From NCBI GenBank assembly GCA_024762925.1, contig JANTGM010000010.1, forward strand, positions 1-64,000: a stretch of DNA of 64,000 nucleotides, read 5' to 3'. Of this stretch, positions 7,859 through 39,401 are shown piece after piece. The notes below the pieces were generated by a model that saw nothing but the letters and a program-made list of their open reading frames with translations, had not been told where the DNA came from and did not search any database. The stretch comes from Kofleriaceae bacterium (GTDB taxonomy: Bacteria > Myxococcota_A > Polyangia > Haliangiales > Haliangiaceae). Position numbers and translations under genes: made by a program. Position 1 is the stretch's first letter; each line of letters opens with the position of its first letter.

Positions 7859-9127
7859 TTGCCGAGAGCGGAGTATAATTGGCCTGATATGCTCTGTCTT
7901 ATTGTCCACAATCGAAGCGAAAAAAACTCCTTGCATTCGTTCGATGGCTATTGCAGGCGAAGTCAGGGGTTGGGCATTGGGATGCTGCTTCTTCTCATCG
8001 CCGCTCTCGTCATGGTGGAAAGCGCGGATGCAAGCGCGTGCGGAACAGTCATCCTGAGCTCGTCGCAAGAGGGGCAATCTGTGCCACAAGACCCCGCGAC
8101 AGTTCGAGCGCTCGATAGGCAGCACCCACAGATCATCCGCTCGGGGTTCATGGTCGGTGGCGGGGACGCAAGTGCCAGTCGTGACATCACAGCGAGTCTC
8201 TGGCTCGAGATTCGCAACTCGCCCGCATCGGTCCGTGGAGTTCTGTTGGAGCCGGTTTGGGGGAGCGGTCCCGATTCGCTATCGCAAATGTGGGGACGTG
8301 TTCATCCACTCTTTGATGGACTCGTTCAGGTAGCGCCAAATCAGGTGGGCCGATATCGAGACCAGCCGTTCACGTTGGGGGTGCGTGCGCGCTTCGTGCT
8401 TCAGGATGGCAGCCTAAGCGCACCCTCACTGCCGGTATTCATTCACCATGCAGGTTCGGCCGAACACACTGACGGAGTTGGGGCCGACTCGGTGTTCATG
8501 GTTCTCTGTCTCGTTGCACTCTTTGGTCTTTGGGTTGCCTTCAAGCGCGAGAACAACCCCGTGTTTCGGATCCGCATTGCCGCGGGAGCAGCGCTTGTCT
8601 CGCTGTTCTTTCTCTCCGTAACACCAGCGCTTTCGTGGCAGGTTGTCAACGACTCAAGTGGGTATGCGCCTTCCGTCGATTGCCACCTTGGTGATGAAGC
8701 ACAATGCGCCACATACGTTCCCGACTCTGGGCCAAATCCCATGTCGAGAAGCGATGTCGCTGCCGAGCGACGCTTTGAATTGGCAAGCTGGATGGGTGCC
8801 TCGTCTGCTTTGCGGGTGGGCATGGTCTGGTGTCTTATCCTTCTGTTGCCAGCACTGATCTGGCTCATGGTTGTTCCCACGTTGCGCCCCGCGCAAACCG
8901 CTGTAGCATTTGGCGCCTCGGCTGCCGGCTACACATTCTTGGCGGCACTTTTTTATCGACTGTGCACGCCATCGTGGATGGACCTCGATCTCACCTGTGC
9001 CTTCGACCTCACTTTGCTCACGAGCGGCACGATCTTCATGGCGATCGGGACGATCATTCGCTACTCGCTACTCATCGAATCTCGGAGCCGTTCTCCACTG
9101 CCCCCAGCCATTGCTAGGCGGATGTAG
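7859..9127 (+). CDS. Hypothetical multi-pass membrane protein with an N-terminal extracytoplasmic domain
   Basis: Long ORF with a hydrophobic N-terminal segment (LLLLIAALVMVESADASA) and four or more C-terminal TM helices. No recognisable catalytic motif. Start uncertain; an internal start near 7979 is possible. Confidence 0.4.
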   Translation: MPRAEYNWPDMLCLIVHNRSEKNSLHSFDGYCRRSQGLGIGMLLLLIAALVMVESADASACGTVILSSSQEGQSVPQDPATVRALDRQHPQIIRSGFMVGGGDASASRDITASLWLEIRNSPASVRGVLLEPVWGSGPDSLSQMWGRVHPLFDGLVQVAPNQVGRYRDQPFTLGVRARFVLQDGSLSAPSLPVFIHHAGSAEHTDGVGADSVFMVLCLVALFGLWVAFKRENNPVFRIRIAAGAALVSLFFLSVTPALSWQVVNDSSGYAPSVDCHLGDEAQCATYVPDSGPNPMSRSDVAAERRFELASWMGASSALRVGMVWCLILLLPALIWLMVVPTLRPAQTAVAFGASAAGYTFLAALFYRLCTPSWMDLDLTCAFDLTLLTSGTIFMAIGTIIRYSLLIESRSRSPLPPAIARRM

Positions 9128-9172
9128 AAGCCTTTCGCTCACGACCAGCTACCTGCTACCCTGCTGAGCATC

Positions 9173-10048
9173 GTGACCACTCCTGCGGTTCCCAGGCGCT
9201 GCTGCCTTTGCCTACGCTGTCGAACGGCGCTTTTTGCGGGCGGCGTTTGTGATTGCGGGGGAACTCCCCAGGTCGCGTGTTTCGAGGTGCCCGCGGAACG
9301 GGAAGCAATTGTGGAGGCGTGTTGGGGAAGTGTCGCAGAGCGTGAGCAAGTGAGGCGCATCGCGCAGCGCGGGCAACGGCGCGTGCTCGCCACCTCGATG
9401 GGTAGCTTTTCTCTCGGCGGCACCGTGGCATACGGCCTAGCGGGGCTCGGTCCTGGCGTGTTGGTCTGGGGCATGCTGGGAAGCCTGACAGGCGGCATGC
9501 TGGCACGCCACAAAGGCATTCGCGAGCGAAAGGCACCTCGAGGAGCAGAGGCATTGCCCGTTGTTGGAGACGTCTCTCTACGCGGCACCGTTGTGGGCGA
9601 GCATCATCTTGTGTCTCCGGCCAGCGCGGAACTCTGTCTCGCCTATAGCCTCGAATTGCGCGTGCTGGCTGGCGATGGTGAACGAGTCATGTATCGCGAC
9701 GCTGTGACCTGCGGTTTTGTGGCTGAACTTGGTACGGGCGAGATGGTGCAAGTTCCCGCAGGACGGTTGCGCTTTGCAGATGAGGCGCCCGAGATTCTCG
9801 ATGTCGACAACCTCGAACTCGAAGCCTACATCGACGACATCGATCCTCATCGCATGCCCTCAGAAGAACTCTACCCACTACATTTCAACTTGGTGCGCGA
9901 GGAGGTTCTCTTCTCCGGCGATGAAGTCGAGCTTGGCGGCACGTTTGAACGTGAGACTCGCGCGAAGAACAGCGCAGCACTGTACCGTGATGCCGCTGAG
10001 AGTCACCTTCGCCCGGTGGGCGTGCCTGTCGTCAGGCGATTGCGCTAA
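9173..10048 (+). CDS. Hypothetical protein: N-terminal Cys-cluster (zinc-ribbon-like), Gly-rich TM segment, C-terminal acidic domain
   Basis: CCLCLRCRTALFAGGVCDCGG at the N-terminus, then SLGGTVAYGLAGLGPGVLVWGMLGSLTGGMLA as a hydrophobic helix. It lies 45 nt downstream of 7859-9127 on the same strand. Confidence 0.4.
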   Translation: MTTPAVPRRCCLCLRCRTALFAGGVCDCGGTPQVACFEVPAEREAIVEACWGSVAEREQVRRIAQRGQRRVLATSMGSFSLGGTVAYGLAGLGPGVLVWGMLGSLTGGMLARHKGIRERKAPRGAEALPVVGDVSLRGTVVGEHHLVSPASAELCLAYSLELRVLAGDGERVMYRDAVTCGFVAELGTGEMVQVPAGRLRFADEAPEILDVDNLELEAYIDDIDPHRMPSEELYPLHFNLVREEVLFSGDEVELGGTFERETRAKNSAALYRDAAESHLRPVGVPVVRRLR

Positions 10049-10997
10049 CGAGGTCGCTCTTCCACGAACGCAGGTCTTCGGGCAATTCAGATTCGAAGCA
10101 CATCGCTTCGCCGCTTATTGGGTGGGCAAAGGCGAGCTTGCGAGCGTGCAAGGCCATGCGAGGCGGGGCCAAGTCGCTCACGCGGCCGTGTTGCTTATCG
10201 CCCAAGACGGGCCAGCCTGCACCCGCCGCATGTAGCCGAATTTGGTGCGTACGGCCAGTTTCAAGGGTTACGCGCAAGATGGTGACTCGATCGCCAATGC
10301 GCTCCTCAACGGCAAAGTGAGACACGGCAGCTTTCCCCGCGATGTCCTCTTCTATGCGCGTTAGATCGTCGGGCCAATGGCCATCGACAACCGCGAGATA
10401 CTGGCGTTCGATTGCGTGCTTGCGAAACGTCTCGCTCAGTTCGCGGTTTGCGTCTTCTGTCTTTGCAAAGACAAGAATGCCACTTGTGTCGAGATCGATT
10501 CGATGAACAACAAACATGCGGATGTTGCGCTCACGCCCAAGGGCATCGGCCAAGTTTCCTCGATCGGATTCGGGGGTGGGGGCAGTGAGAAGCCCAGCTG
10601 GCTTGAATGCCACGCAAATGTGGTCGTCCTCGAAAAGTACCGAATGCTGTGGCAGCTTTGCAGCATCTTTGGAACGCGCTGCCCGGCCGGTCTTCTTGGT
10701 TGCGCGATCAAACGCACCGCCAAGAACCACTTCGACAAGCTGTCCGATCTTCACAGTGCGCCCGGCAACCTTAACGCGGGCACGGTCGACGAAGACCCCG
10801 CCGATGTCGAGCAGTACACGAGCCTTGCGGCGGCTCAAGTCTGGCACCGTTGCGGCAAGGAATTGATCGAGGCGAAGTCCAGCGTGTTCGGCCGTTACGC
10901 GCACGCGAAATTTCTCTGCGGAGATCACGACGGAGAGATAGCACGTAGTGGAGGTGGAGAGTGCGTTTTGGCAGCGTTTACTCGTCAGGACTGGCAT
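10032..10997 (-). CDS. RluA-family RNA pseudouridine synthase
   Basis: Catalytic motif HRIDLDTSGILVFAKT (HRLDxxTSG) with an S4-like N-terminus (GLRLDQFLAA). Start uncertain; an in-frame GTG at 10928 would avoid overlap with the upstream gene. Confidence 0.8.
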   Translation of the reverse strand: MPVLTSKRCQNALSTSTTCYLSVVISAEKFRVRVTAEHAGLRLDQFLAATVPDLSRRKARVLLDIGGVFVDRARVKVAGRTVKIGQLVEVVLGGAFDRATKKTGRAARSKDAAKLPQHSVLFEDDHICVAFKPAGLLTAPTPESDRGNLADALGRERNIRMFVVHRIDLDTSGILVFAKTEDANRELSETFRKHAIERQYLAVVDGHWPDDLTRIEEDIAGKAAVSHFAVEERIGDRVTILRVTLETGRTHQIRLHAAGAGWPVLGDKQHGRVSDLAPPRMALHARKLAFAHPISGEAMCFESELPEDLRSWKSDLVSAIA

Positions 10998-12555
10998 AGT
11001 TGTCGAGGGCAAATTGCCATCGCTCTGCAATCCACTGTCTCACATAGGCCAGTTCTTCTTCGGGGGTTGTGAAGTCTCCACGCCCCGACCAGCGTCCAAA
11101 ACTTCGGTATTCGCTCTCCCAACGTTCCCAATCGCGAGTGGCAGCAAGGCGCATCTGGGCCTCGTATCCATCGATGAGGGACTCTAGCGAGGCCAGGGCA
11201 AAGGCGCCTCCTTCCAAGGTGTCCCGGTAGCGCTGGCGAATTGCGGCGCCGTGAACGGGGTGCTCTTGCAAGCGCTCAAAGATGCGATTGCGTGAGAAGA
11301 AGGGCTCGTAGTCTTGAGAATCGGTGCGCCGTGTTTGCCAGTCTTGGCCAAAGCTGTCGTTGAAGTCCCACGGCGCAACTCGCCAGGTGCGGGCAGCATC
11401 ATGGTAGTGATAGCTATTCTTGCCGGCTGAATCATTCGCAAGAATGAATGTCACGTGGAGCCACCAAGCGGCGTAATCATCGACGCTGATGAGTTCGGCG
11501 ATACCGCTGTTAAAGGTTGCGTCATCCGAATTGGCGACAAACCCGACCAGCGCATCCATGTCGTCGAAGGCGCCTGGCTCACCCTCATCGGGGTTCCCCT
11601 CCGTTTTTGAGTAGCCTTGGTGCAGCGTGTCTTTGCTGCTGCCGTTGGCCGCCGTGGTGCGAAAATTGGCATCGTGGTTTTCTGCTTTGTACACGTTGGC
11701 GCTATCGGAGAGCCCATTGCGAGCCATGAGTTCTGCGTTGACGTGATCGGTAACCGTGTAGATACCGCGATACTCTGTGCCGCGATACACAACCGCGCTG
11801 TAGGCTCTTACGTCGATGCTTGGCTCGAGTCTAGACCACAGGTCGAACGCCATGCGCTGCCGAATGTAGCTATTGTCATCGAACGTTGATGTAAGAATAA
11901 CTCGGGTTCGATTGGCAAAGTCGGCAAAACGGCTCTCCCCAAAAGCATCGAATTTGTCAAAGCGGAGTGCGTAGCTCTTCTTTGGATAGGTGAGCGATGA
12001 CTTGCCGCGAAGCTTGGCTTCCGCCTCGTGTACGTGACCTCCGTACGTGATTTGCATCGGCTCGAAGCCCTCATTCCCCGCAGGTTCATGGGCAATGAAG
12101 ATCACGGGCAAGCCCAACTCCATCGTGTACTGGCTCGGATCTACGATCGGGACATTGTCAGGGTTGTTCAACGCATCGGCGACACCAATCTGGAGGGTGT
12201 GCGCTGCGAAGAGTTCGGGCGAGGACAGCGAGATGTCGTAGACTGCGGCTTGATCGAGGGCTGGGGTCCAGGTGAGCGTTCTGGATGCGGCGTCAAAACT
12301 TGCACCTTCAGGTAGTGGCCCAATCTCAAGATCCTCCAACGCTTCACCGCTTGAGCACGAAATCGTCACACTGAGCGGTTCGCCCTCGACAACCCACACC
12401 GGCTCGCCTGGTGAGAAGCCACAAAGATCGGCTGCGCCTCCATCGGGTGCCCCACCGTCGACTCCACTTTGGGGGTCTCCACCACCACAAGCCACGAGCG
12501 TGGATGCAAGAGCGACAAGGGAACGTGAAATACGAGAGCACACAAGCATTGGCAC
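10978..12555 (-). CDS. CotH-family (spore-coat kinase-like) secreted lipoprotein
   Basis: Signal plus lipobox LVALASTLVACGGGD. The blocks KNSYHYHDAARTWRVAPWDFNDSFG and DDNSYIRQRMAFDLWSRL resemble the CotH NxYLY...PWDxDxSFG core. About 525 aa. Confidence 0.55.
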   Translation of the reverse strand: MPMLVCSRISRSLVALASTLVACGGGDPQSGVDGGAPDGGAADLCGFSPGEPVWVVEGEPLSVTISCSSGEALEDLEIGPLPEGASFDAASRTLTWTPALDQAAVYDISLSSPELFAAHTLQIGVADALNNPDNVPIVDPSQYTMELGLPVIFIAHEPAGNEGFEPMQITYGGHVHEAEAKLRGKSSLTYPKKSYALRFDKFDAFGESRFADFANRTRVILTSTFDDNSYIRQRMAFDLWSRLEPSIDVRAYSAVVYRGTEYRGIYTVTDHVNAELMARNGLSDSANVYKAENHDANFRTTAANGSSKDTLHQGYSKTEGNPDEGEPGAFDDMDALVGFVANSDDATFNSGIAELISVDDYAAWWLHVTFILANDSAGKNSYHYHDAARTWRVAPWDFNDSFGQDWQTRRTDSQDYEPFFSRNRIFERLQEHPVHGAAIRQRYRDTLEGGAFALASLESLIDGYEAQMRLAATRDWERWESEYRSFGRWSGRGDFTTPEEELAYVRQWIAERWQFALDNYASPDE

Positions 12556-28660: not shown

Positions 28661-28891
28661 CTACAATGCGGCAGTTTCCAAGCCAGCTTGCGATATTGCC
28701 CTTGCCCCAATAGTTGGGTTTTTGTTCTTGGCGAGGGAGCGACGTTGCAGCTCTATGGACGCTCGCAACTCCATAGTCGTTGGCGTGGACAGGCTGCGCC
28801 ACCAGCAAAAGCAACAAGAGGCCCACGAGCAGAATCCGCATGAGGCCTAATACGAGCGGGGGCTTCATCCGTTGCCTCGTATCTCGGCTTT

Positions 28892-28934
28892 CGTGCTCCA
28901 GAGCGAAGCATGTGGAGTGCTCCAGAGCGAAGCA
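28892..28934. repeat. 18-bp direct repeat (gtgctccagagcgaagca x2, spacer tgtgga) about 95-135 bp upstream of the MVP start
   Basis: Read directly: cgtgctccagagcgaagca tgtgga gtgctccagagcgaagca. Confidence 0.6.
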
Positions 28935-29025
28935 GCCAGTCATGCGCGTCTCGAACTTCCGCGCACCTAGCCCCGGCATACGACTTGCTCTCATGCACCG
29001 CGAACCCCAGAAAGGACGATTGCTT

Positions 29026-31041
29026 ATGGCCGAACGCGACATTCGAGAACGAGATATTTTGGTAGCCCCAAACGAATATGCTTACGTGCAAGACTTAACC
29101 AAAGGCGACATCGTGCTCTACGTCGGTCCCACCAAGGTTAGTCTCAGCAATACCGAGCGCATGATTGAGCATCGCGATGGCCGTTTTGTGCCTGTGCGAG
29201 GCGATGAGGCCGGTATGAGCGTGCACCGTTTTGTCGGCGCGACTTCATCGCAATACATTATTCTTCAGAACCCTCCCAAAGATCCGGAAACGCAGGCTAC
29301 CAAGGGCGCCAACTCAGCAGTGCTACTAGAAGTTGGTCGCACGCTTGTTGTGCCCGGTCCGGCGGAGTTTCCTTTGTGGCCAGGGCAGACCGCTCGTGTC
29401 GTGGACGGTCATCGCCTGCGCGAGAATGAGTATCTCGTATTGCGGGTCTATGATGATGACGGCCAGGGGTCGCCCATTGGCACCGAAAGCATTCTGCGAG
29501 GAAGCGATCAGAGTTTTTATCTGCCAACAACGGGGCTCGAAGTGGTGCCCAATCGGGATGGTAACTATGTGCGCACGGCTTGGCGCTTGGACCACAGTCG
29601 AGGACTGCACTTGCGGGTGACAGCCAGCTTCGAGACGGGGGAGGAGGACCTCTTGCCACCAGGGCGCTACCAGGCTGGCCAGGATGTCTTCTTGCGGGGA
29701 GGTGCTGGTTTCTTCTTTCCAAACAGCAGTATCCACGTCGTCGCAGAGGTCGAAGCGATTCCTTTGGCGGAGAAAGAGGGGATTTATGTGCGAGACCTTG
29801 AGAGCGGCGGGGTACGCACCGTGGTTGGTCCGCAGAGCTATCTAGTCGATCCGACAAAAGAAGAACTCGTAGGAAGACCTCTAAGTGACGAGGTTCGAGC
29901 GTCCTGGAGGATTTCCAAGTACAGCGCAAAGCGCGCTCCTGCGATCTACGTGCCTCCCAGCGAGGCTGTCTTGATTATCGCGCCCAGTCGGCGAGAACTC
30001 GTGATGGGGCCGCAAGTTCGGGTGCTCGATTTTGATGAGGAGCTTGAGGTTTTGCAGCTGAGCACCGGACGGCCAAAGAGCAACGCCAACCTACTCGATA
30101 CCTGCTTCCTGCAAGTGCAAGGCAACAAGGTCTCGGATCGCGTGCAGTTGCAGACCGCCGATCACGTTGATCTCATGGCGACGCTCTCGTATCGCGTCTC
30201 GTTTGTCGGAGACAACGAGAAGTGGTTTGCTGTGCGCAACTACGTGGAGCTCTTGTGCGATCATCTTGGCTCGATCATTCGATCGGCAGCGCGCGCAACC
30301 ACGATTCACGACTTTCATGGATCATCGGCTCAGGTGCTGCGCGACGCTATCTTAGGATGCCACGAAGATTCCGGTGCCCGGACTGGTCGTCACTTCGAAG
30401 AGAATGGGATGTGGGTCTACGATCTTGAGGTTCTCGATGTGAGCATTCAGGACACCGACGTTCTGGAGATGTTGCAAAGTTCGCAGCGGGCCGCGATAGC
30501 CAGTGCGATTCATCGCAGTAGTGAAGATCGACGACTTGGAGACGAGCAGCTCAAGGAGTCTGTCAATTTGCGAATCATGAAGAGCCAAATTGCGACCCTT
30601 CAACAAGCCGCTGAACACGAGGCGACAAGTCGCGGTGTCGAGCTAGCGCGCACTGGCACACGGCTCGAAATCGATCGCATGGACAGAGTTGGACGGGCAA
30701 AGAACGCGGCTGACGCAGCATCCATCACCAACACAGCCCAACTTGCGTTGCAAAGCGCCAAGGCCGAACTTGAGGCCCAAGCCCTCGCAGCAAACGCAGA
30801 CGCCTTTTGCCAACAGATGCAGAGCCTCCAACCGGAACTCATCGCAACCTTGAAGAGCTTGGGCAACAAGCAACTCGCCGGCGAGCTCACAAAGAACTTG
30901 GCACCACTCGCTATCCTAGGTGGCGACTCAGTTGCCGATGTTGCCTCGCGGCTCCTTGAGAGTCTGCCAATGACCGGCAGCGCCGGCGGAATTCGCGATC
31001 TCCTTGTGGCTCCGGCGTGCGCTGCCACCGAAGAGGACTAG
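29026..31041 (+). CDS. Major vault protein (MVP) homolog
   Basis: RBS AAAGGA lies 9 nt before the ATG at 29026. [34 protein letters not shown] matches human MVP [49 protein letters not shown]...[19 protein letters not shown] matches VLSLSAGRPKRPHARR...IETADHARLQLQLAYNWHF. The N-terminus has MVP-repeat-like beta modules. An SPFH-like shoulder and a C-terminal coiled cap-helix region follow. Confidence 0.85.
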   Translation: [671 protein letters not shown]

Positions 31042-31515: not shown

Positions 31516-33924
31516 ATGGGGAATCGAGGAAGATTGTCAAACCGCTTATCAAGTGTATTGCTGGCCTTAGTGCTTTGGTCTTGTGGAGACCGCGTACCTG
31601 GCCCGCCGATCGTTGAGTCGGTGATGCCCTCAAGCAAACCGGCAGGAGCCGCTCTCAACATTGCGATCAGGGGAAGCGCCTTCTACCAATTCACGAGCGC
31701 GAACCTCGACGATAAGAAGCCAGCCCGAGCAGATGATCGTTTCACGGCAACGCTTGTACGGAGCGGGTTGCTGCCCATCGAGCTTGAGGGTGTTGCGTGG
31801 ACCAATCTTACGAGCCTAAGCGCGGTGGTGCCGGGAGGACTTGAAGTTGGCAGCTACGACTTGGTGGTTACTGGACCTTTGGGGGCATCGAACACCCTGG
31901 TTGGAGCGTTTACTGTCTGTGCTGACGAGGATGGCGATGGCACATGTGGATGCATCGATCGCGACCGTGACGGTTTTGGCGCGGAAGGGGACCAGAGCAC
32001 ATGTGCCAACGTGGGCAACGACTGCAACGATGCCGTAGACTCGATCTTTCCAGGTGCCCCCGAGGTGGCCGACGACACTGTCGATCAAGACTGCAATGGA
32101 AATGACACCGTTAGCTGTTTTCTCGATGGCGATATGGATGGGTTCGGAACCGACTTGGGAACGATCAAGCTCGCTCCCGACGGTTCTTGCGAGACATCTC
32201 AACAGGAGTCAACTGTCGCAACGGATTGCGATGATTCGCAAGCAAGCACGTTTCCGGGGGCAGCTCCCAATGATGGCACTGAGTGCATGAAGGATGTTGA
32301 TGGCGACGACTTTGGCGACCAGAATCCACCTGCTCCGGTCACTCCTGGAAGCGATTGCGATGACATGTCCACAGGTTGTGTGAGTGACTGCATTGATGCG
32401 GATTTCGATGGCACGCCGGTTTGTGCAGGCGATTGTGATGACAGCATTGCCACTGGAGTTTCTTGCACCACAGGGTGCACGGTATTCCTTGCCGACGCCG
32501 ATGGCGATGGCTTTGGCGATGCGTCCAGTCCTGCTTCCGCAGCGAGCTGTGTGGCGCCGACTGGCTTTGTCGCCAATAGCACCGACTGCGATGACAATCC
32601 TCTCGCTTGCGGCAGTAGCTGCTTTCCTGGCAACCCGGCAGCCGATATTTGTGACGGCGACAACCAAGACTGCGATGCTTTGCTCGATGAGAATCCGGAC
32701 GTTGTTTGGTTCGCGGATGCCGATGGTGACAACTTCGGAAACCCCGCAAGCTCAACCAATGCTTGTACGCAGCCAGCGGGGTTTGTCGCAAACAATCTAG
32801 ACTGTGCAGACAATCCTGCTGGGGATGCAGTATGTGGGGGCCTCAATGGCAACTTCTGCAACCCTTTGGCTGGTGAGGGGCCTAGTGGCGACGCAACGTG
32901 TGGAGACAACGCTGACAACGACTGCGACACCGATACGGATGACGCTGACGCGGATTGCACGGCTACCACGACGACCATCACGTTGCGCTTTGACAACTCG
33001 GGCATCGGAGAGAATCTCATAGACTTCCCTGTACTCGTGACCTTGACGCCTGGCAACTTCGACTATGGCAGCGCCGAAGTCGACGGATCCGATTTGCTCT
33101 TCGAAGATGATGACGCTTCCACCGTGCTGCCTCACGAAATCGATGTATGGAATCCGGGTGGCACTTCGCAGATCTGGGTCTTAGTTCCGCAGATCGACGC
33201 CGGCTCATCAACCGATCACATCTTTCTTACGTATGGCGACGTTGGCATTGCACCAGGGGAAGACGCCGACACCTTGTGGAGCGCGTATCACGGTGTTTGG
33301 CATATGCAAGAGAATGGAGATGGCACGGCTGATGAGTTCAGAGACAGCTCGCCACAGAACAATCATGGTCAGGGTGGCGGTGGCGATGCATCTCGGGTTC
33401 CCAATCTCGTCGCGGGGCAAATCGGCAATGGGCAGACCTTCGATGGCGACAATGATCGCATCCTCATTAGCCCAAGCGACAGCTTCAACTTTTCCGAAGA
33501 CGCGGTATCCATGGAGTACTGGGCCTCTCCAAACCTCACGGGCGGCCCGATGGTGGCGATTGGCAAGGGAGGCTTTCCCACCGGCTACCGCAGCGGCATT
33601 GAGTTCGATGGGCGCGTTGGATGGCTGGTGGCTGGCACGTTGCTCGATACGGTCGTGGTGGCATCTGCCGAATTCCACCACATCGTCGTTACCTGGAATG
33701 GCAGCACGATGCGAACCTACGTCGATGGTGTCGAGCGAGCAAGCCAGAGTAAAGGCGGCAGTCTGGGAACGAATTCTAGTGACTTCTTTATTGGTCGCGG
33801 ACCGATCGGTTTTGAATTCCGAGGCATCATCGACGAGGCTCGCGTGATCAACGAGGGGCTTTCTGGGCCTTGGATTGAGGCGCAGTTTCGCACTACGAGT
33901 AACACCTACATCACCTTCGAGTAG
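31516..33924 (+). CDS. Large secreted lipoprotein: about 10 Cys-rich Asp-rich modules (putative metal-binding/MopE-like), then a DUF2341-like domain, then a LamG/concanavalin-A-like lectin domain
   Basis: ATG at 31516 gives a signal peptide LSSVLLALVLWSCGD. Repeated DCDDxxxxxxPGAxExxDGxDxDCDG modules are present (for example ATDCDDSQASTFPGAAPNDGTECMKDVDGDDFGD). The C-terminus has ITLRFDNSGIGENLIDFPVLV...DHIFLTYG and VAGQIGNGQTFDGDNDRILIS...HHIVVTWNGSTMRTYVDG, as in LamG (Laminin_G_3) domains. The ORF-track start at 31108 lies inside the repeat element. Confidence 0.65.
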   Translation: MGNRGRLSNRLSSVLLALVLWSCGDRVPGPPIVESVMPSSKPAGAALNIAIRGSAFYQFTSANLDDKKPARADDRFTATLVRSGLLPIELEGVAWTNLTSLSAVVPGGLEVGSYDLVVTGPLGASNTLVGAFTVCADEDGDGTCGCIDRDRDGFGAEGDQSTCANVGNDCNDAVDSIFPGAPEVADDTVDQDCNGNDTVSCFLDGDMDGFGTDLGTIKLAPDGSCETSQQESTVATDCDDSQASTFPGAAPNDGTECMKDVDGDDFGDQNPPAPVTPGSDCDDMSTGCVSDCIDADFDGTPVCAGDCDDSIATGVSCTTGCTVFLADADGDGFGDASSPASAASCVAPTGFVANSTDCDDNPLACGSSCFPGNPAADICDGDNQDCDALLDENPDVVWFADADGDNFGNPASSTNACTQPAGFVANNLDCADNPAGDAVCGGLNGNFCNPLAGEGPSGDATCGDNADNDCDTDTDDADADCTATTTTITLRFDNSGIGENLIDFPVLVTLTPGNFDYGSAEVDGSDLLFEDDDASTVLPHEIDVWNPGGTSQIWVLVPQIDAGSSTDHIFLTYGDVGIAPGEDADTLWSAYHGVWHMQENGDGTADEFRDSSPQNNHGQGGGGDASRVPNLVAGQIGNGQTFDGDNDRILISPSDSFNFSEDAVSMEYWASPNLTGGPMVAIGKGGFPTGYRSGIEFDGRVGWLVAGTLLDTVVVASAEFHHIVVTWNGSTMRTYVDGVERASQSKGGSLGTNSSDFFIGRGPIGFEFRGIIDEARVINEGLSGPWIEAQFRTTSNTYITFE

Positions 33925-34219
33925 GTGTCGCTATCGAAGCACGCCAACGGAGGGGACTTGCCCACCGATGATGCGAACAGTCTTGCGATTGCTCTTATCG
34001 AGTTTTTCAGGGTCGATGCCGAGCGCCAAACGCATTGCTTCGAGTGCCTGTGAATCGCTCATGGTGGGACCATACTGCGGCCATGTCGCCAGAGGCTATT
34101 CTCCGCTTAGGATTGCTTTCGCAGCTGCCTCTGCGATTCGCAATTCGTGGATGGACTGGCTGTCTTGCACCGATGCCAGCAGACCCAAGTGAAGAGTCCG
34201 CGGGGAGTGGGAAAGTTGC

Positions 34220-35509
34220 TCAGACATCATCTGAGGCCTCAATGCCGTAGGGCACGCCGCTTGGGCAGCCGTGCATAGCAAGGAGCTTTCCGTTTTCGTC
34301 AATGGACAAGAACCGGTGTGCTTCCGTGATCTCTGGCCATTGAGTGCCTCTTGCCTGCTTGAGGCGAACTGCTGCGCTTACGGGGTGGGATCGAGCCCTA
34401 TTTCTCTTTGCGATTTCTTCTGAGGGACAGTGAAATGCAGCGATCGTCACCAGAGCACCATAGTCAACCGCCATGGCGATGACAGCGCTGCGGAAGTCAG
34501 TTCTAAGTGACGTGGCGTCCCAGACGACTTTTCGCTTTGCGCGCAGATGCTCCCGTAGTTCCTCCTTCGCCATGCGCAGGACCTTAGAGTTATTCTGTTG
34601 GTCTTCACGTCGAGACAAGGATGCCCGGATATCGTCAAGAGACACGACCTTGTGGTCGCCAAGGTTCTTGCCAATCCAGGTCGTTTTTCCGCTGCCGCTG
34701 AGCCCAGTGGTCACAACAACTTCAGGAAATTCGTCACGGTAGCCATACGACTTCGCAATCGCTTCTTCTGGAGTCGCGATGACGCCATCTTCGCGGTCCG
34801 ACGTTGCTTTGGCGACCACGAGATCGATTGTTGCTCCCGAGTGTCCCGCCAGGGCCTCTCTGATCTCATCGTTCCACAAGTCGCGCTCTTGGGTGTGCCA
34901 TACGTCGTACTCCTCTGCGAACATCCGAAACATCTCGAGATGCTCTAGCTGAGTTTCCTTGTCGCGACATTCACGTCCTCGGATGTCGGCAACTTCCAAC
35001 CAATAGATGAGTTCGAGGTCCACCACACGACTCAGCCTTCTGTAGGCGCCTGGCGACTGATTGCGCAAGACGAGTTTCTTTAGAGCGTTGTGATAGCCCG
35101 TGAGTGCCATGACTGAGTTGAGCAATGGAAAGCGCATGGTACCTGCGAGTTGAAGAGCCAAGTACGAGCGACCTTGCAGTTCATGACGAGGGCAGACAAG
35201 CCGGATGCGACCATCGATTTCACGCTCTTTTGTGGTGGTTGGTTTGGCGATGTCATGGAACGCCGAGCCCATGACAAGGGCCGCTCGCCTTGCAGGTGAG
35301 ATACCGTTGAGATCCGCGTCCAGTAGTTTGTAGGTCTCATCCAAGACCATCTGCGTGTGGATAAGGACGTTGCCCTCTGCATGCCATTCTGGGTCTTGCG
35401 GCGTGCCTTCTAGCTCATGGAGCAAGGGCAGCCGGTCGCCTAGATCATCGATAATGTCACTCATCGATGGCGAGCCACCGCTCGCGATGTGATCAATGAT
35501 ATCGCTCAT
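34220..35509 (-). CDS. Bifunctional RNA/DNA end-healing enzyme: N-terminal HD 2',3'-phosphoesterase domain fused to a C-terminal P-loop 5'-OH polynucleotide kinase domain (HD-Pnk architecture)
   Basis: The HD domain EWHAEGNVLIHT...GSAFHDIAKP resembles the HD domain of CCA-adding enzymes. The Walker A is VVVTTGLSGSGKTTWIGKNL, with Walker B VVWDATS and lid residues typical of T4 Pnk/zeta-toxin-like kinases. Start/stop overlap (ATGA) with the upstream RNA ligase gene. Confidence 0.65.
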   Translation of the reverse strand: MSDIIDHIASGGSPSMSDIIDDLGDRLPLLHELEGTPQDPEWHAEGNVLIHTQMVLDETYKLLDADLNGISPARRAALVMGSAFHDIAKPTTTKEREIDGRIRLVCPRHELQGRSYLALQLAGTMRFPLLNSVMALTGYHNALKKLVLRNQSPGAYRRLSRVVDLELIYWLEVADIRGRECRDKETQLEHLEMFRMFAEEYDVWHTQERDLWNDEIREALAGHSGATIDLVVAKATSDREDGVIATPEEAIAKSYGYRDEFPEVVVTTGLSGSGKTTWIGKNLGDHKVVSLDDIRASLSRREDQQNNSKVLRMAKEELREHLRAKRKVVWDATSLRTDFRSAVIAMAVDYGALVTIAAFHCPSEEIAKRNRARSHPVSAAVRLKQARGTQWPEITEAHRFLSIDENGKLLAMHGCPSGVPYGIEASDDV

Positions 35510-36147
35510 TGCTCTTCTCCTTCTTGGGAAGCCAGGCGGTTTGGAACAACGGGCTTGTGCATCCAGTGCTCTTCACTTTGAATATGGTTTGTGCGGACCC
35601 ACTTGGCAACTGAATCACCAAAGTCTGCATACGCAAAACGACTCGCCAGGCGCACTACGTAGCCTTCGGTGACAGAGGTGTCGGGCGCCAACTCTCGCAA
35701 AGCGTGTTCGTCGTAGATGCCGTCGAAGAGCACTGGCACGTGAGCGAGCCCCAAGAGCGCCGCCCACTCAACTGTCTCATCCCAGCTCAAGCAATGGTTT
35801 TGCTCGTTCCAAACCGAAAACATGAGAAAGAAACTTGGAAGCGCTGCATAGGCAATGGAATGGAGGGCGTAGAGGTTCTCCCCACAGACACGCCAGCCCT
35901 CGGGGATTTGGTGCGCCATGCGTCCGTGCATCGCCTTCACCCAGTCTCGTGAAGGGTGATGGCGACCATCGATTGAGCGAGCGTGAAGACCGTCTCGGTA
36001 GAGGCTAGTGTTTTCGCCGTCCATCTTCTCGGTCACGATGACGCGTTGGCCCCGGAAGGGCAGTAGAGAATCGGCAAAGAGGTCGTCTGAGGTAGATCCG
36101 GGGGACCACGGCAAGTGCCGTGTCCGCGGGTATTTTACGCGGTGCAT
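35506..36147 (-). CDS. ATP-dependent RNA ligase (PF09414-like nucleotidyltransferase)
   Basis: N-terminal KYPRTRHLPWSPG followed by motif I VTEKMDGEN (KxDGxN adenylylation lysine). Later motifs ENLYALH (III-like), EGYVVR (IV) and KWVR (V-like) are present. 213 aa. Confidence 0.65.
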   Translation of the reverse strand: MHRVKYPRTRHLPWSPGSTSDDLFADSLLPFRGQRVIVTEKMDGENTSLYRDGLHARSIDGRHHPSRDWVKAMHGRMAHQIPEGWRVCGENLYALHSIAYAALPSFFLMFSVWNEQNHCLSWDETVEWAALLGLAHVPVLFDGIYDEHALRELAPDTSVTEGYVVRLASRFAYADFGDSVAKWVRTNHIQSEEHWMHKPVVPNRLASQEGEEQ

Positions 36148-36377
36148 AGTTCAGCTCCAATGCGCAACGATGCAAGGCATTCGCCGCAGCTGCAAATGAT
36201 AACGAGGGCTCGCTAGAGTCTTGGGAGGACTCGCGAAACAGGAGGTTCTGGACCAGGTCGTTACATTGTTGGAGAGAGGTGGTTGGGACAAAAGTGTCCG
36301 CAACAGTTCCTACAAACTACAGAAGGTGCAGCGGTCTGTCTAGCGAAGAATTCTGGTCTTGCTCAAGACGGCTGATT

Positions 36378-36731
36378 CTAAGCGATGGCGGCTAGCACTC
36401 GGTCCACTGTCTCTTGCGGTTCAGCAACTTCAACGACGAGCCGGTGGTAGCGATGATTCTCGAGGTCAATGACCACCGTATTCTGCGTCTTGACCACATC
36501 CCAGAACTCCCAGACGCCATTTTTTCGATAACTGCCAGCGACGATGACACCTGGCACATGCGTTCCTGGAAGACGAGCCCCGTGCCACCAACCGAGTTTG
36601 GTGGTGGCACGAGTCTCAATGGACCGAATGGCTGACAAGGGCACTTCAATCTGCTTCTTGAGGGCCCAGAGTTTGTGTATGCCAAGCACCTCGACGATGA
36701 GGCTGCTATTGCGTATGGATATCTCAACCAT
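36378..36731 (-). CDS. Hypothetical small protein (possible bacterial PH-like fold)
   Basis: Coherent 117-aa ORF with protein-like composition and no motif recognised. The alternative-frame ORF 36392-36865 looks like a GC artefact. Confidence 0.35.
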   Translation of the reverse strand: MVEISIRNSSLIVEVLGIHKLWALKKQIEVPLSAIRSIETRATTKLGWWHGARLPGTHVPGVIVAGSYRKNGVWEFWDVVKTQNTVVIDLENHRYHRLVVEVAEPQETVDRVLAAIA

Positions 36732-37556
36732 GCCGCCATTCTAACTACGGATAGAAGTCGCTGCCTGTTGTCGTGGACACGGCGCGGATTGCAAGGGAGA
36801 GTTTGTGAGCTTGGTGCAAGTATGCGCTTGGCCAATCCAAGGCGCACGAATAGCGGCCGGCGCAATCCAATTTCTCGCGCTTAGGGGGCCCATGTAGCCC
36901 AAAGCAACATACTGCCTACAGGAGATGGTCGCCCGCTGAGCGAACCGGTCCGAAACTCGGGGCTTGGACTCGTCTGAGAAGTGAGCTGCCGAGAAGAGCA
37001 AGAGGAGTGTACCTTCTTGGAGAACTGCGAAAAGTTCTCAGTGTGCACCTCGGATCTTGAGCCTAAACGCACCGAGACTACAAGTCAGGCTGCCGACATG
37101 CCACACGCGTGAGCAGCTACGACCTGCACATCGAACATGGCATCGCACTCACTGCAGCCCATCCCACAACTGCCCAGCATCGTCGTTACATGGTGCCAGC
37201 GATGTCTTCTCGCATTCAGGGCACCGCACGATGAGTGCCGTCGCGGTGTCTATGCCCTTGCCAGTGAGCCGAATCATCTGGCTACGCGACTCCTCGGCCC
37301 ACCTTCGCTCCATGTCGGTAATCTCATCATCAACCGCACAGGTTCTGCGAATCCTGACTCGAGCAGCCAGGTCATCGTGAGCGTGGGTGCTCCTTGGAAT
37401 GCAACCGCTCCACGAGCCCATGGATTGATGGGAGGCGCATACCACTTGCCGAGTTTTCCTCGAACCAAGACGCCACCAGCTAGACATGAGAACATTGCTT
37501 TCTTTCGTGCGGGCGTCATCGTCAGAGCGTACTCGCATCGCACGAGGTCTGTCGAC

Positions 37557-39401
37557 TCAGGTCTCGGTCGGCGAACTCTTCCAACGTCTCATCAAAGTGG
37601 CGTACTCTGGCAACCACGAAGCGTCCCAATTGCCAGAAGTAAACTTCGCATCATCGACTCTTGAGTTACAGGTCCAGGCGTATTCAATTCGGCTCATGAC
37701 ATCATGGGAATGAATCGACTCGTCATAGGCTTTCGCACCCAGATTCAGAAATCGCAGGTTTGGGAGTCTATTGACCAGATCCCAGATCCCCTCACGGTCA
37801 GCCTTCAGCACGTTCTTGAGGCCCAAGCCGACGAGCTGTGAAGCAACGGGCGATTGCAGCAGCACCTTCATCTCCTTGCCTTGGACACTTCCCAGGAACC
37901 GGAGACTGGGGAGTGAGTAGTCCGAAATTCTCTCAATCGACTTCGTGACATCGATGATCTCCAACGCGGACCAGCCCGGGTCACGTCGAGACTTGCCATC
38001 AAACGAGGCGATAGCACAAGCGTGCAGTATTCCTCTGTCGAAGTGCGCAGCCGGGCCATCAATGATGTGTGCACCTGTCCACCGAATGTGTTCACTGAGA
38101 ACTCCAGCGAACCTCTTGCGTTCTCTTGTCGTGAGCTTTGTGGGTTCTCCGGAGAGCTGAGCGCGTATGAACTCGCCGTGCGGGTCTCCTTGCTCCATGA
38201 GCGAGTCGGAGAGGACCCAGCGCGGATCGTCATCGTCTGGAGTTTCAAAGACGAGGGCAAAGAGAGCCTCCGTGCTTGCGTTCTTTTCTACCTCAATCCC
38301 TCTCACCGAAAGCAGCTGCGCGAGAACAGGACTGCTTTGAGCCACTTGGCTAAGCTTCTTCAAGTCATCGGATTCCCCGTGAATCAAGAGTGCGGCCAAA
38401 ACATGGAGTCCCTCTTCACCGTCCAGCCGAAACCTTGGGGCTTTGGCAAACTCCACAAGCTCCTTGCTTGGGTTCCAATTGGCGCTACCGATTCGCTGCG
38501 CAATGTGCGTGGCGATTGCGGCTTTCGTCTTGGGTAAGGCGGCATCGTCGAACGACGCCTTTCGATTCTTGGACAGGCGGTACCCAATCCACTGGAAGAC
38601 GCGCTCTCGGTTTTCAGAAACCCAGATGTCCATTTGGCTGGACAGCGGACCTATGTTGAGCCGGCTATCCGGACCCACTGGCCGTCGCAGTAGCTGCAGA
38701 TGTTGCTCGTTGGCACGCAACAGGACGTTGAAGAGCAGATGGAAATAGAACTCCTTTGCGCCGAAAGAGCGCCAAAGCCTATCCTCGATGAGCCAGCTAA
38801 CGAGGGTGTCAATTTCTGTGCCTACGGACTCGGACGTTATGCGAATCATGCCCTGAGTGGCTCGGCCCAAATCGCCTTCGATGATGGAGTCGAGCGGCGT
38901 AGGTGCAAGCGTTGGTTTCTTGGTCTCGGCGTTTTGGGCGGGCCTTGGGGGTGCGGATCTTGGCACGTCGCTTTCTGCGCTTTCGACCTCAGGAGGCGCT
39001 TGCGGGCATTCCTCGCCTCTCGTGGCTTTATCGAGGAGAAGCACATCTTCAGCGCAGAGAATCCGTGGCGTCTGCAACGACATGCCCAACCGTCCAGGCT
39101 TGGCGCTAATCCCCTTGCCCGTTGACAGTTTCAGGCTGCCAATCGCGCTTGTGATGTCGCAGAGGGCGGTAGAGTTCTTAGCCTCCCAACCGTCTTTCGT
39201 CTGAGTCGGGTTTTCCATTCGGGCGACGAGCCACAAGACATCATCCGGCCGGACTGTGACCAAGTAGAGGGTTCCGCCCTCAGCGAGCCCTTCTAGCCGT
39301 TTGTTGCTAGAGCGGTAAACCGAGGTTGCATACACGTCCCCTAGCACCAGTGATCCAGCCTTCGCGAAGACTGCTTTGCTAACGATGGCCAGCATGTCCA
39401 T
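37557..39401 (-). CDS. TIGR02996 repeat-companion domain / leucine-rich-repeat protein
   Basis: DDDDPRWVLSDSLMEQGDPHGEFIRAQLSGE matches the TIGR02996 core (DDPRLVYADWLEEQGDPRGEFIRLQ). LRR-like segments at the C-terminus include LRFLNLG and LPSLRFLG. The function of the N-terminal 300 aa is unknown. Confidence 0.55.
   Translation of the reverse strand: MDMLAIVSKAVFAKAGSLVLGDVYATSVYRSSNKRLEGLAEGGTLYLVTVRPDDVLWLVARMENPTQTKDGWEAKNSTALCDITSAIGSLKLSTGKGISAKPGRLGMSLQTPRILCAEDVLLLDKATRGEECPQAPPEVESAESDVPRSAPPRPAQNAETKKPTLAPTPLDSIIEGDLGRATQGMIRITSESVGTEIDTLVSWLIEDRLWRSFGAKEFYFHLLFNVLLRANEQHLQLLRRPVGPDSRLNIGPLSSQMDIWVSENRERVFQWIGYRLSKNRKASFDDAALPKTKAAIATHIAQRIGSANWNPSKELVEFAKAPRFRLDGEEGLHVLAALLIHGESDDLKKLSQVAQSSPVLAQLLSVRGIEVEKNASTEALFALVFETPDDDDPRWVLSDSLMEQGDPHGEFIRAQLSGEPTKLTTRERKRFAGVLSEHIRWTGAHIIDGPAAHFDRGILHACAIASFDGKSRRDPGWSALEIIDVTKSIERISDYSLPSLRFLGSVQGKEMKVLLQSPVASQLVGLGLKNVLKADREGIWDLVNRLPNLRFLNLGAKAYDESIHSHDVMSRIEYAWTCNSRVDDAKFTSGNWDASWLPEYATLMRRWKSSPTET

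Follow-up and report, generated by a model that had tools for sequence, protein, structure and literature searches.

An overlapping pair of genes on Kofleriaceae contig JANTGM010000010.1 probably forms a translationally coupled operon that heals, and presumably seals, broken nucleic-acid ends, and the pair is probably orthologous to ligB(ddrP)/DR_B0098 of Deinococcus radiodurans and to a gene pair of Runella slithyformis. Both open reading frames lie on the minus strand of the window, the 64,000-nucleotide stretch of DNA that was analyzed as a whole. The first, Lig1 (35506..36147, 213 aa), belongs to the DR_B0100 (LigB/DdrP) family of ATP-dependent polynucleotide ligases, and the second, HD-Pnk (34220..35509, 429 aa), is a predicted bifunctional end-healing enzyme. 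The genes overlap at ATGA (35506..35509, minus strand), read directly from the sequence, in which the stop codon of Lig1 (35506-35508) is interlaced with the ATG of HD-Pnk (35507-35509). GGAG is found 7 to 8 nt 5' of both starts (35517-35520 ahead of HD-Pnk, 36155-36158 ahead of Lig1), and the overlap itself suggests that translation of Lig1 and HD-Pnk is coupled. The E-values and the identities of 57% and 37% to characterized proteins place the pair far beyond chance. A sequence-only reading of the region had proposed an overlapping operon of a ligase with a KMDGEN motif I and a KYPRTRHLPW N terminus and of an HD phosphoesterase fused to a P-loop kinase (GLSGSGKTT), and these assignments all stand.

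Lig1 is a nucleotidyltransferase domain only. The protein begins with MHRVKYPRTRHLPWSPG and covers the Pfam RNA_ligase model PF09414 from end to end (positions 2-171 of 171; E 1.9e-33). Motif I, found in the context VIVTEK41MDGEN, is K41-x-D43-G-E-N46, and all of 66 homologues share K41, D43, G44, E45, and N46. Also invariant in the 66 are the segments that we assign as motif III (R86-x-C-G-E90-N), motif IIIa (F107..F110-S), motif IV (E161-G-Y-V-V-R166), which ends in Arg rather than Lys, and a V-like motif (K182-W-V-R185), which reads KxxR instead of the usual KxK. The N-terminal segment K5-Y-P-R-T-x-H-L-P-W-S-P-G is conserved as well, and so is a C-terminal tail (H188..H194-W195..N203). Lig1 is 57% identical to DR_B0100 over 207 aa without a single gap, and K41 aligns with K40 of that protein, the lysine that is adenylylated and without which, in a K40A mutant, adenylylation cannot occur (Blasius et al.). 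The same authors judged motif V of DR_B0100 to be missing and described the protein as an adenylation domain only. An AF2 model of Lig1 (pLDDT 90.1) is one compact domain with no OB fold or other appended domain, and the homologues are 206 to 250 aa in length.

Searches of PDB sequences with Lig1 alone and as a 66-sequence profile returned only spurious matches and no solved structure, and the fold was therefore searched instead. The best fold matches are RNA ligases: that of Naegleria gruberi (Foldseek E 2.8e-6), archaeal RNA ligases, and T4 Rnl2 (E 2e-5). The Naegleria and DraRnl (DR_B0094) enzymes and T4 Rnl2 share PF09414 with Lig1 and include the solved folds nearest to it, but they are 320 to 340 aa long (337 in Naegleria) and thus exceed Lig1 by roughly 110 to 130 residues. 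The added length of the Naegleria enzyme is an OB-like domain at its N terminus. Unlike ligases of the Naegleria/DraRnl type, Lig1 has no N-terminal domain ahead of motif I at residue 41 and has only the short conserved KYPRTxHLPWSPG there. By sequence, the Lig1 profile detects none of the Naegleria/DraRnl-type or T4 Rnl2 ligases.

HD-Pnk is an N-terminal HD phosphoesterase (34841..35434, about residues 26-223) joined to a C-terminal P-loop 5'-OH polynucleotide kinase (34310..34726, about residues 262-400), both on the minus strand. The kinase half has the P-loop G269-L-S-G-S-G-K275-T-T followed by S290-x-D292-x-x-R295, W330-D-A-T333, and R373, and the P-loop, D292, R295, and R373 are invariant in 57 aligned homologues. 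It matches AAA_33 (E 5.9e-23) and the kinase part of the bacterial Pnkp model TIGR04075 (E 1.8e-13), and an HD-Pnk profile finds Clostridium thermocellum Pnk (CthPnk) at 3e-21. The P-loop Lys, catalytic Asp, and Arg of CthPnk align with K275, D292, and R295; in the Cth chain these are residues 22, 39, and 42, which would correspond to K21, D38, and R41 if the chain has one extra N-terminal residue. The top matches of the kinase domain in sequence and fold are CthPnk, mammalian PNKP, T4 Pnk, and fungal RNA kinases. Its fold matches are headed by polynucleotide kinases, and by these comparisons the alternative that the domain is a small-molecule kinase is not supported.

Recognition of the HD half was less direct, as HD-Pnk itself has no Pfam HD match at an E of ≤0.01. 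We nonetheless conclude from the alignment that the HD domain is real. PF01966 is matched by 56 of the 57 aligned homologues, the columns H43/H51/H85-D86/H140/D175 are invariant in all 57, and the conserved positions of the domain comprise W42-H43-A-E-G, H51, H85-D86, K89, H109, H140, D175, and G178-R179. Moreover, among sequence models the HD half (residues 26-223) is matched best by the HD region of NF008137, a model for the CCA-adding/repair enzyme (6e-4), and the tRNA-processing enzyme 3wfo_A heads its structural matches (pLDDT of the AF2 model of HD-Pnk, 93.1). HD-Pnk aligns with DR_B0098 over 408 columns at 37% identity (residues 1-400 of 429; E 1e-69). The family has 212 representatives at an E of ≤1e-30, nearly all of 400 to 430 aa, and the matches span most of each protein.

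The pair was already known. It corresponds to DR_B0100/DR_B0098 of D. radiodurans, under study since 2007, and in the Runella cluster the two genes overlap in this order too; what we describe is therefore an ordinary new copy. As here, the D. radiodurans ligase comes first and on the same strand, its lysine has the context VVTEK-L/M-DGEN, and the partner has the HD domain before the kinase. Unlike the direct overlap here, a bacterial-type PARG (TIGR02452) is found between the two genes on megaplasmid MP1, in the order DR_B0100/DR_B0099/DR_B0098. Deinococcus sp. QL22 has the direct two-gene form. DR_B0100 forms a K40-dependent AMP adduct, and DR_B0098 is a 5' kinase that acts on a 5'-OH DNA 25-mer, kinase being its only secure activity (Blasius et al.). 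Under many conditions, DR_B0100 ligated neither DNA nor RNA, whether alone or with DR_B0098 and DR_B0099 (Blasius et al.). The R. slithyformis cluster consists of Tpt1, MTase-HIT, ligase, and HD-Pnk; its HD-Pnk is a 2',3'-phosphoesterase and 5'-OH kinase, and its ligase forms ligase-AMP but joined none of the 3'-OH/5'-PO4 substrates that were tried (Munir & Shuman 2017; Munir et al. 2018). Judged by this published description, the Runella pair resembles the one here in having an N-terminal HD and C-terminal kinase domain and a ligase directly upstream whose 3' end overlaps the HD-Pnk start, and it differs in that Tpt1 and MTase-HIT are not adjacent here.

The sequence-only reading had noted biochemical characterization of the HD-Pnk fusion in only a few Bacteroidetes; the cassette is neither rare nor confined to that group. 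The ligase family is present in at least 590 species, with 55 to 83% identity across phyla, and we examined the neighborhoods of the 80 best of the at least 590 ligase loci. An HD-Pnk homologue lies directly downstream of the ligase in 63 of these 80, and about 10 more have an HD+AAA_33 gene directly upstream, such that an HD-kinase neighbor accompanies about 73 of the 80. A ligase/HD-Pnk overlap of 1, 4, or 8 nt is present at no fewer than 21 of these loci, and direct overlap is also seen in Deinococcus sp. QL22 and on a viral contig. The pair is carried by chromosomes of many phyla, by megaplasmids, and by one viral contig of 381 kb. It is thus portable in the evolutionary sense, as had been supposed. 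No island signature is seen near it here. In Actinobacteria and Polyangia, the ligase is also found fused to the kinase, and the next gene encodes a protein with MJ1316, EEP, 2H-phosphoesterase, and PAP domains. RF-1 domain proteins are neighbors at three loci, and the ligase is found in tRNA-rich jumbo phages.

How the pair might act can be proposed from its characterized orthologues. The HD half of HD-Pnk would use a transition metal to remove 2',3'-cyclic, 3'-, or 2'-phosphates and leave a 3'-OH, the P-loop half would phosphorylate 5'-OH ends from an NTP, and Lig1 would react with ATP to form ligase-AMP at Lys41. We infer that Lig1 would then seal the healed 3'-OH/5'-PO4 ends. Because Lig1 is a bare nucleotidyltransferase domain without a substrate-clamping domain, it probably needs a partner for sealing, and the co-translated HD-Pnk is the obvious candidate. 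Orthology that is collinear over the full length of both DR_B0100 and DR_B0098 argues for this proposal, as do the activities measured for the orthologues, the assigned catalytic motifs, all invariant across 57 to 66 homologues, and the linkage of the two genes across loci. The substrate is more likely to be RNA, or a break that contains RNA, than pure DNA. Here, we lean on the modeled ligase fold, which is nearer to RNA ligases than to DNA ligases, on the resemblance of the HD half to 3wfo_A and to the HD region of CCA-adding/repair enzymes, and on the company that the family keeps in other lineages, namely, the MJ1316/2H-type partner genes, the RF-1 neighbors, and the tRNA-rich jumbo phages.

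Other findings count against this proposal. Sealing has never been reconstituted for the orthologues, the sole positive report being one that needs PprA and concerns DNA, the in vivo evidence, which is from Deinococcus, concerns DNA damage, and the QL22 pair has DNA-repair genes beside it. The earlier claim that the cassette supplies every activity needed for RNA repair thus went too far, as neither DR_B0100 nor the Runella ligase, although both become adenylylated, sealed any DNA or RNA that was offered. Its claim of RNA repair as such agrees with the folds and with the partner genes in other lineages but not with Deinococcus genetics, which points to survival of DNA damage. Perhaps HD-Pnk cleans the 3'-phosphate/5'-OH DNA ends left behind by oxidation or radiation, and DNA nicks or breaks are sealed by the ligase together with a DNA-end-binding cofactor. 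The D. radiodurans operon is induced by radiation, loss of DR_B0098 sensitizes cells to ionizing radiation as much as deletion of the whole operon, and DR_B0098 accepts a DNA end. Moreover, one study reports DNA ligation by DR_B0100 in the presence of DR_B0098 and PprA, the fold matches of the kinase include mammalian PNKP, which repairs DNA, and the QL22 pair adjoins genes for uracil-DNA glycosylase, DinB, and a spore-photoproduct-lyase-like protein. In another study, however, a DR_B0100 mutant was as radiation resistant as the wild type, and Blasius et al. saw no DNA ligation. The ligase is RNA-ligase-like in fold and family, the MJ1316 and 2H domains of partners elsewhere recognize RNA cyclic-phosphate ends, and no DNA-repair gene flanks the pair in the window. 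We give DNA strand-break repair a small chance of being the right explanation.

Two further explanations seem quite improbable to us, to about the same degree. One is that the cassette is dedicated to the repair of RNA cut by ribotoxins or anticodon nucleases and so confers immunity in conflicts between microbes or with phages. Its logic would be that of T4 Pnkp/Rnl1, bacterial Pnkp-Hen1, and Pnkp1-Rnl-Hen1, and the ligase resides in jumbo phages, for which reversal of tRNA cleavage is the proposed role of such systems. Paenibacillus and Brevibacillus encode a SUFU-domain protein 3' of the ligase, and the SUFU family is linked to toxin immunity. A search for a toxin or anticodon nuclease nearby, as the sequence-only reading had advised, found none: Pfam and PADLOC searches of the ten flanking genes (about 10 kb on each side) gave no nuclease, toxin, anticodon nuclease, or defense gene. 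PADLOC models matched neither Lig1 and HD-Pnk nor their ten neighbors and thus give no link to a known defense system. Moreover, the whole window has no tRNA gene by tRNA scan and the cassette no shift in composition, the flanking genes are different in every relative, and repair of toxin-cleaved RNA has been demonstrated for no orthologue. The other explanation is that the "ligase" leaves standard ends unsealed and instead adenylylates an unusual acceptor, with HD-Pnk only preparing or recycling that end. The acceptor could be a 3'-OH,2'-PO4 end (the case of fungal Trl1), a 5' end that carries ADP-ribose or another cap, or a target that is not a nucleic acid. Ligation failed in two independent studies despite robust self-adenylylation, Lig1 has neither an OB nor a C-terminal domain, and its KWVR departs from the KxK of motif V. 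Tpt1 is a neighbor in Runella and a PARG in D. radiodurans, but neither is adjacent in the window. Against an unusual acceptor, the segments that we assign as the nucleotidyl-transfer motifs of true ligases are all conserved, and the ligase is nearly always linked to a kinase whose products, 5'-PO4 ends, are what ligases normally use.

The healing-and-sealing operon may be compared with Pnkp-Hen1 and Pnkp1-Rnl-Hen1, with which it shares three predicted activities, those of a 5' kinase, a 2',3' phosphoesterase, and an ATP-dependent ligase. Its kinase domain has homologues in CthPnk, Pnkp1, and T4 Pnk, and the ligase is a separate polypeptide, as in Pnkp1-Rnl-Hen1. Here, however, the phosphoesterase is an HD domain rather than a calcineurin-type enzyme or a DxDxT acid phosphatase, the ligase has only its nucleotidyltransferase domain, and a domain scan found no Hen1 methyltransferase or metallophosphatase in the pair or its neighbors.

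What our analysis adds is a three-gene unit in the closest relatives and the probable relic of its third gene here. Just 3' of HD-Pnk, these relatives encode Lig2, a second, paralogous PF09414 ligase of 235 to 270 aa with the motif I EEKVDGSH, and intact Lig2 has the same position in Nannocystales-type genomes. In the window, a 44-codon open reading frame (34096..34230, minus strand) begins with an ATG that gives it an 11-nt overlap with the HD-Pnk stop. Over its first 16 codons (MMSEQLSHSPRTLHLG), the frame resembles the N terminus of Lig2, and the remainder of the gene is absent. When a Lig2 HMM was compared with all 1712 six-frame segments of the window, only Lig1 ranked above this frame (E of the frame, 0.13; conditional E 5e-4), and DNA similarity to two related loci (L089 and L090) continues for about 50 nt beyond the HD-Pnk stop and then ends. 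Judged by sequence, the frame is probably a relic of Lig2, and the cassette probably derives from a three-gene form (Lig1, HD-Pnk, Lig2) that lost its second ligase. A 43-codon frame at 33931-34062 has no family match, and Lig2 proteins and profile detect nothing there.

We speculate, with little confidence, that the ancestral unit of this lineage was a three-protein machine in which Lig1 works only as part of a complex, with different ends or steps falling to the two ligases. The dependence of Lig1 on a complex would then be the reason that isolated DR_B0100-type ligases looked dead for nearly twenty years, and Lig2, having been lost repeatedly (here and at locus L091), would be an accessory specialization. 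The division might be between RNA and DNA strands or between 2'-PO4 and 2'-OH termini. The operon adds another copy to a common, previously described type of end-healing and ligase cassette, its host probably being an uncultured myxobacterium, and its value is indirect. The comparative picture yields concrete hypotheses for reconstituting the activity of DR_B0100-type ligases, which come from the near-obligatory pairing with an HD-kinase, the kinase fusion of Actinobacteria beside an MJ1316/2H protein, the recurrence of Lig2, and the jumbo phages.

GC content is flat across the cassette (0.55 to 0.58) and so gives no sign of recent acquisition. The ten flanking genes include no Tpt1, PARG, MTase-HIT, or Hen1 methyltransferase gene, and in every relative checked the flanking genes differ, the pair itself being the only neighbor common to all related contigs. 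A major-vault-protein gene 3 kb away was considered as a functional partner and set aside, as no such gene is listed for the related contigs that were examined. Rfam at a permissive threshold matched nothing in 33800-36800, promoter and terminator consensus sites were no more common than in shuffled sequence, and no short inverted repeats flank either operon end. A conserved upstream TGTAACGA/TCGTTATCA pair was rejected as an RNA stem, as covariation was weak and the motif was not enriched in the window. An alignment of six loci defines a putative upstream leader or promoter region (36148..36290, minus strand) that is conserved among the closest relatives only. RNAalifold found little covariation support in this leader, and a hairpin may be present 5' of the Shine-Dalgarno sequence. 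The leader contains AATGTAACGA at about -118 and TCGTTATCATT at about -57.

That the two genes are real, and not a chance pattern, is confirmed. On the minus strand, a 213-aa ligase gene (Lig1, 35506..36147), which starts MHRVKYPRTRHLPWSPG and contains VIVTEK41MDGEN, is followed by a 429-aa gene (HD-Pnk, 34220..35509) that contains G269-LSGSGKTT. The sequence-only reading placed the pair at exactly these coordinates (34220-36147) and had the second start overlapping the ligase stop, and indeed, a single ATGA holds the Lig1 stop (35506-35508) and the HD-Pnk ATG (35507-35509). Moreover, GGAG lies 7 to 8 nt 5' of both starts.

The ligase assignment depended on the motif I lysine, and K41 proved to be invariant in 66 homologues, with a match of Lig1 to Pfam RNA_ligase PF09414 at an E of 1.9e-33. 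Also invariant in those homologues were D43-G-E-N of motif I, G89-E90-N of motif III, F107/F110 of motif IIIa, E161-GYVV-R166 of motif IV, K182-WV-R185 of a motif V-like segment, and the N-terminal Y6-P-R-T-x-H11, where motif numbers are those assigned in the present analysis. Lig1 is predicted to form one compact domain (pLDDT 90.1), and the solved folds closest to the model were RNA ligases, all ahead of DNA ligases: the Naegleria gruberi RNA ligase (2.8e-6), archaeal RNA ligases, T4 Rnl2, T4 Rnl1, and fungal Trl1. The family appears to lack an experimental structure, as searches of solved structures with the Lig1 sequence and with the family profile detected none.

The HD domain of HD-Pnk is real, although the window protein itself falls below the Pfam cutoff (no match to the HD model at E<=0.01). 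All but one of 57 aligned homologues matched PF01966, the alignment columns for the metal ligands H43, H51, H85-D86, H140, and D175 were invariant, and the AlphaFold model was confident (pLDDT 93.1). Moreover, residues 26 to 223 matched the HD region of the multifunctional CCA-adding/repair enzyme NCBIfam model NF008137 (6e-4). The kinase domain matched Pfam AAA_33 (E 5.9e-23) and NCBIfam TIGR04075, the kinase module of bacterial Pnkp (1.8e-13). A small-molecule kinase is unsupported, as the best matches among solved structures in a sequence search were all polynucleotide kinases, namely, Clostridium thermocellum Pnk (1e-7 by single sequence and 3e-21 by family profile), Pnkp1, T4 Pnk, and mammalian PNKP. 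K275, D292, and R295 aligned with residues 22, 39, and 42 of the C. thermocellum Pnk chain, which would correspond to K21, D38, and R41 as published if the chain has one extra N-terminal residue. A D38N mutant of that enzyme has been crystallized.

Neither gene is rare. When plasmid records were searched by tblastn, homologues of both turned up on the Deinococcus radiodurans megaplasmid MP1, where an RNA-ligase-family protein (at the DR_B0100 position) is annotated first, then a TIGR02452 PARG (DR_B0099), then an AAA-family ATPase (DR_B0098). DR_B0100 is 57% identical to Lig1 across 207 residues without a gap, and DR_B0098 is 37% identical to HD-Pnk across 408 alignment columns; in Deinococcus sp. 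QL22, the two genes are directly adjacent with a 4-nt overlap. By orthology to DR_B0100 and DR_B0098, therefore, the window pair belongs to a known kind of cassette that has been studied experimentally. When one genome per species was scanned with a profile, the Lig1 family turned up in at least 590 species, the best 80 loci of which fell in Myxococcota, Verrucomicrobiota, Gammaproteobacteria, Firmicutes, Actinobacteria, Deinococcota, Planctomycetota, Acidobacteriota, Chloroflexi, Leptospira, one Parachlamydia, and one archaeal MAG. An HD-Pnk homologue lay directly 3' of the ligase on the same strand in 63 of those 80, with an ORF overlap of 1, 4, or 8 nt in at least 21 of the 63, and in about 10 more of the 80, mainly Paenibacillus and Brevibacillus, a gene with HD and AAA_33 lay directly 5'. 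A search of a 1.84-billion-protein library with HD-Pnk matched 212 cluster representatives (50% identity) at E<=1e-30. Lig1-type ligases also occur in jumbo phages (Salicola SCTP-2, XacN1, giant Caulobacter phages, and others), and one 381-kb viral contig carries the overlapping pair. The cassette is not confined to Bacteroidetes.

What the widespread Lig1-type ligase joins is a long-standing question, for which the window copy gives no unique test. DR_B0100 forms a lysyl-AMP adduct with ATP, and adenylylation is lost when K40, the aligned counterpart of Lig1 K41, is mutated. DR_B0098 phosphorylates 5'-OH ends, and Runella HD-Pnk is a 2',3'-phosphoesterase and 5'-OH kinase. DR_B0100, alone or with its operon partners, sealed no DNA or RNA substrate, and the Runella ligase failed to join any 3'-OH/5'-PO4 substrate that it was given. 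One study reported DNA ligation that required both DR_B0098 and PprA, and DR_B0098 mutants are radiation sensitive. A 2025 paper suggested that the Deinococcus PARG removes ADP-ribose caps from 5'-phosphate ends for the operon. The proposal of a complete RNA repair pathway is thus not supported, as the orthologous ligases self-adenylylated but did not seal the RNA substrates offered. We lean toward RNA over DNA as the substrate, because the Lig1 fold is nearest to RNA ligases and because of the partner domains found elsewhere. HD-Pnk would turn ends bearing 5'-OH and 3'-phosphate or cyclic phosphate into 5'-PO4 and 3'-OH, and the bare-domain Lig1 may seal them only while a partner holds it on the substrate, the simplest such partner being the cotranslated HD-Pnk. 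The ligase of Pnkp1-Rnl-Hen1 is likewise its own subunit, within a ring complex.

The partners in variant architectures lean toward RNA ends. Actinobacteria and some Polyangia encode the ligase and kinase as a single fusion protein (550 to 730 aa; homologous loci L061, L064, L065, L071, L076, L079-L081, L083, L084, and L086), and in at least seven of these, the next gene encodes a protein of ~920 to 1,090 aa with MJ1316, EEP, 2H phosphoesterase, and PAP domains (e.g., L071:6989-8719, then 8719-11619). MJ1316 is a domain for recognizing RNA cyclic-phosphate ends, and the combination suggests a distinct repair architecture directed at RNA ends. In Paenibacillus and Brevibacillus (L036, L050, L059, L060, L062, L067, and L085), the order is reversed, with a shorter HD-plus-kinase gene preceding the ligase and a gene for a SUFU-domain protein following it (SUFU hits in seven downstream genes, E down to 6e-46). 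RF-1 domain proteins lie 5' of the ligase in three loci, and a Thermoplasmatota MAG joins an HNH endonuclease domain to the ligase N terminus (L068:6584-7618), an architecture also reported for phage Rnl2-family ligases. The phage profile phrog_24030 (342 positions) matches Lig1 only through positions 132 to 340 and is therefore extended N-terminally too.

The only item that is new against the literature examined is a probable lost third gene. In L087, L088, L089, and L090, the nearest relatives with contig past HD-Pnk (69 to 73% identical to the window's HD-Pnk), a second PF09414 ligase, Lig2, begins a few nucleotides before the HD-Pnk stop (L087:7262-7996, L088:7283-8062, L089:2174-2935, and L090:2558-3325), and it occupies the same position in Enhygromyxa, Plesiocystis, Nannocystales genomes, and some Gammaproteobacteria. 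Lig2 is 235 to 270 aa with motif I EEKVDGSH, is 25 to 31% identical to Lig1, and has at least 1,082 proteins in its family. In the window, a 44-codon minus-strand ORF (34096..34230) overlaps the HD-Pnk stop by 11 nt, and its codons 1 to 16, MMSEQLSHSPRTLHLG, match the Lig2 N terminus, with PRTLHLG identical. When a Lig2 HMM was run against all 1,712 six-frame window segments, this segment ranked second, behind Lig1 (E 0.13; conditional E 5e-4). At the nucleotide level, the window remains similar to L089 and L090 for ~50 nt beyond the HD-Pnk stop and no further. The ORF is probably, though not certainly, a Lig2 relic, because the statistics rest on position and a short motif, and the cassette probably derives from a three-gene form, Lig1, HD-Pnk, and Lig2, which is likewise absent from the literature examined. 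L091 is syntenic with L088 yet lacks Lig2; thus, the loss is recurrent, having occurred in the window and, independently, in L091. We note that in L090, a JGI metagenome contig, Lig1 is broken (675-1279) into a 146-aa PF09414-matching fragment and a 47-aa ORF, either a frameshift/pseudogene or a sequencing error, while HD-Pnk and Lig2 are intact.

The suggested link to a toxin found no support at this locus, nor did a recently acquired island. Defense-system models matched no flanking gene, the whole window yielded no tRNA gene, GC is flat over the cassette (0.55 to 0.58), and the flanks differ in every related contig compared. Thus, the RNA-repair interpretation is supported in part: the domains and operon are right, and the rarity, complete pathway, and toxin link are not supported. 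The neighbors encode a hybrid histidine kinase, a bacterial major vault protein homologue, a secreted MopE/LamG protein, a YbjN-type chaperone, a LysR regulator, and an NmrA-type reductase. Two minus-strand genes 5' of the cassette, of 117 aa (36378-36731) and 614 aa (37557-39401), had no Pfam or PADLOC match, and none of the related loci compared was found to encode a homologue of the 117-aa protein. The vault protein gene (28780-31041, plus strand; MVP_shoulder 4.9e-26, with Vault_3 and Vault_4 repeats) lies 3 kb from the cassette and is probably unrelated to it, because none is listed among the genes of the related contigs examined.

A noncoding stretch of ~140 nt 5' of Lig1 (36148-36290, minus strand) is kept in close relatives only (L087, L088, L089, L091, and L092) and had no Rfam match. 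Covariation support there is weak. The stretch could be an operator, promoter, or leader. It carries AATGTAACGA at about -118, present as three tandem copies in L091, and TCGTTATCATT at about -57, and a candidate hairpin precedes the Lig1 Shine-Dalgarno sequence.
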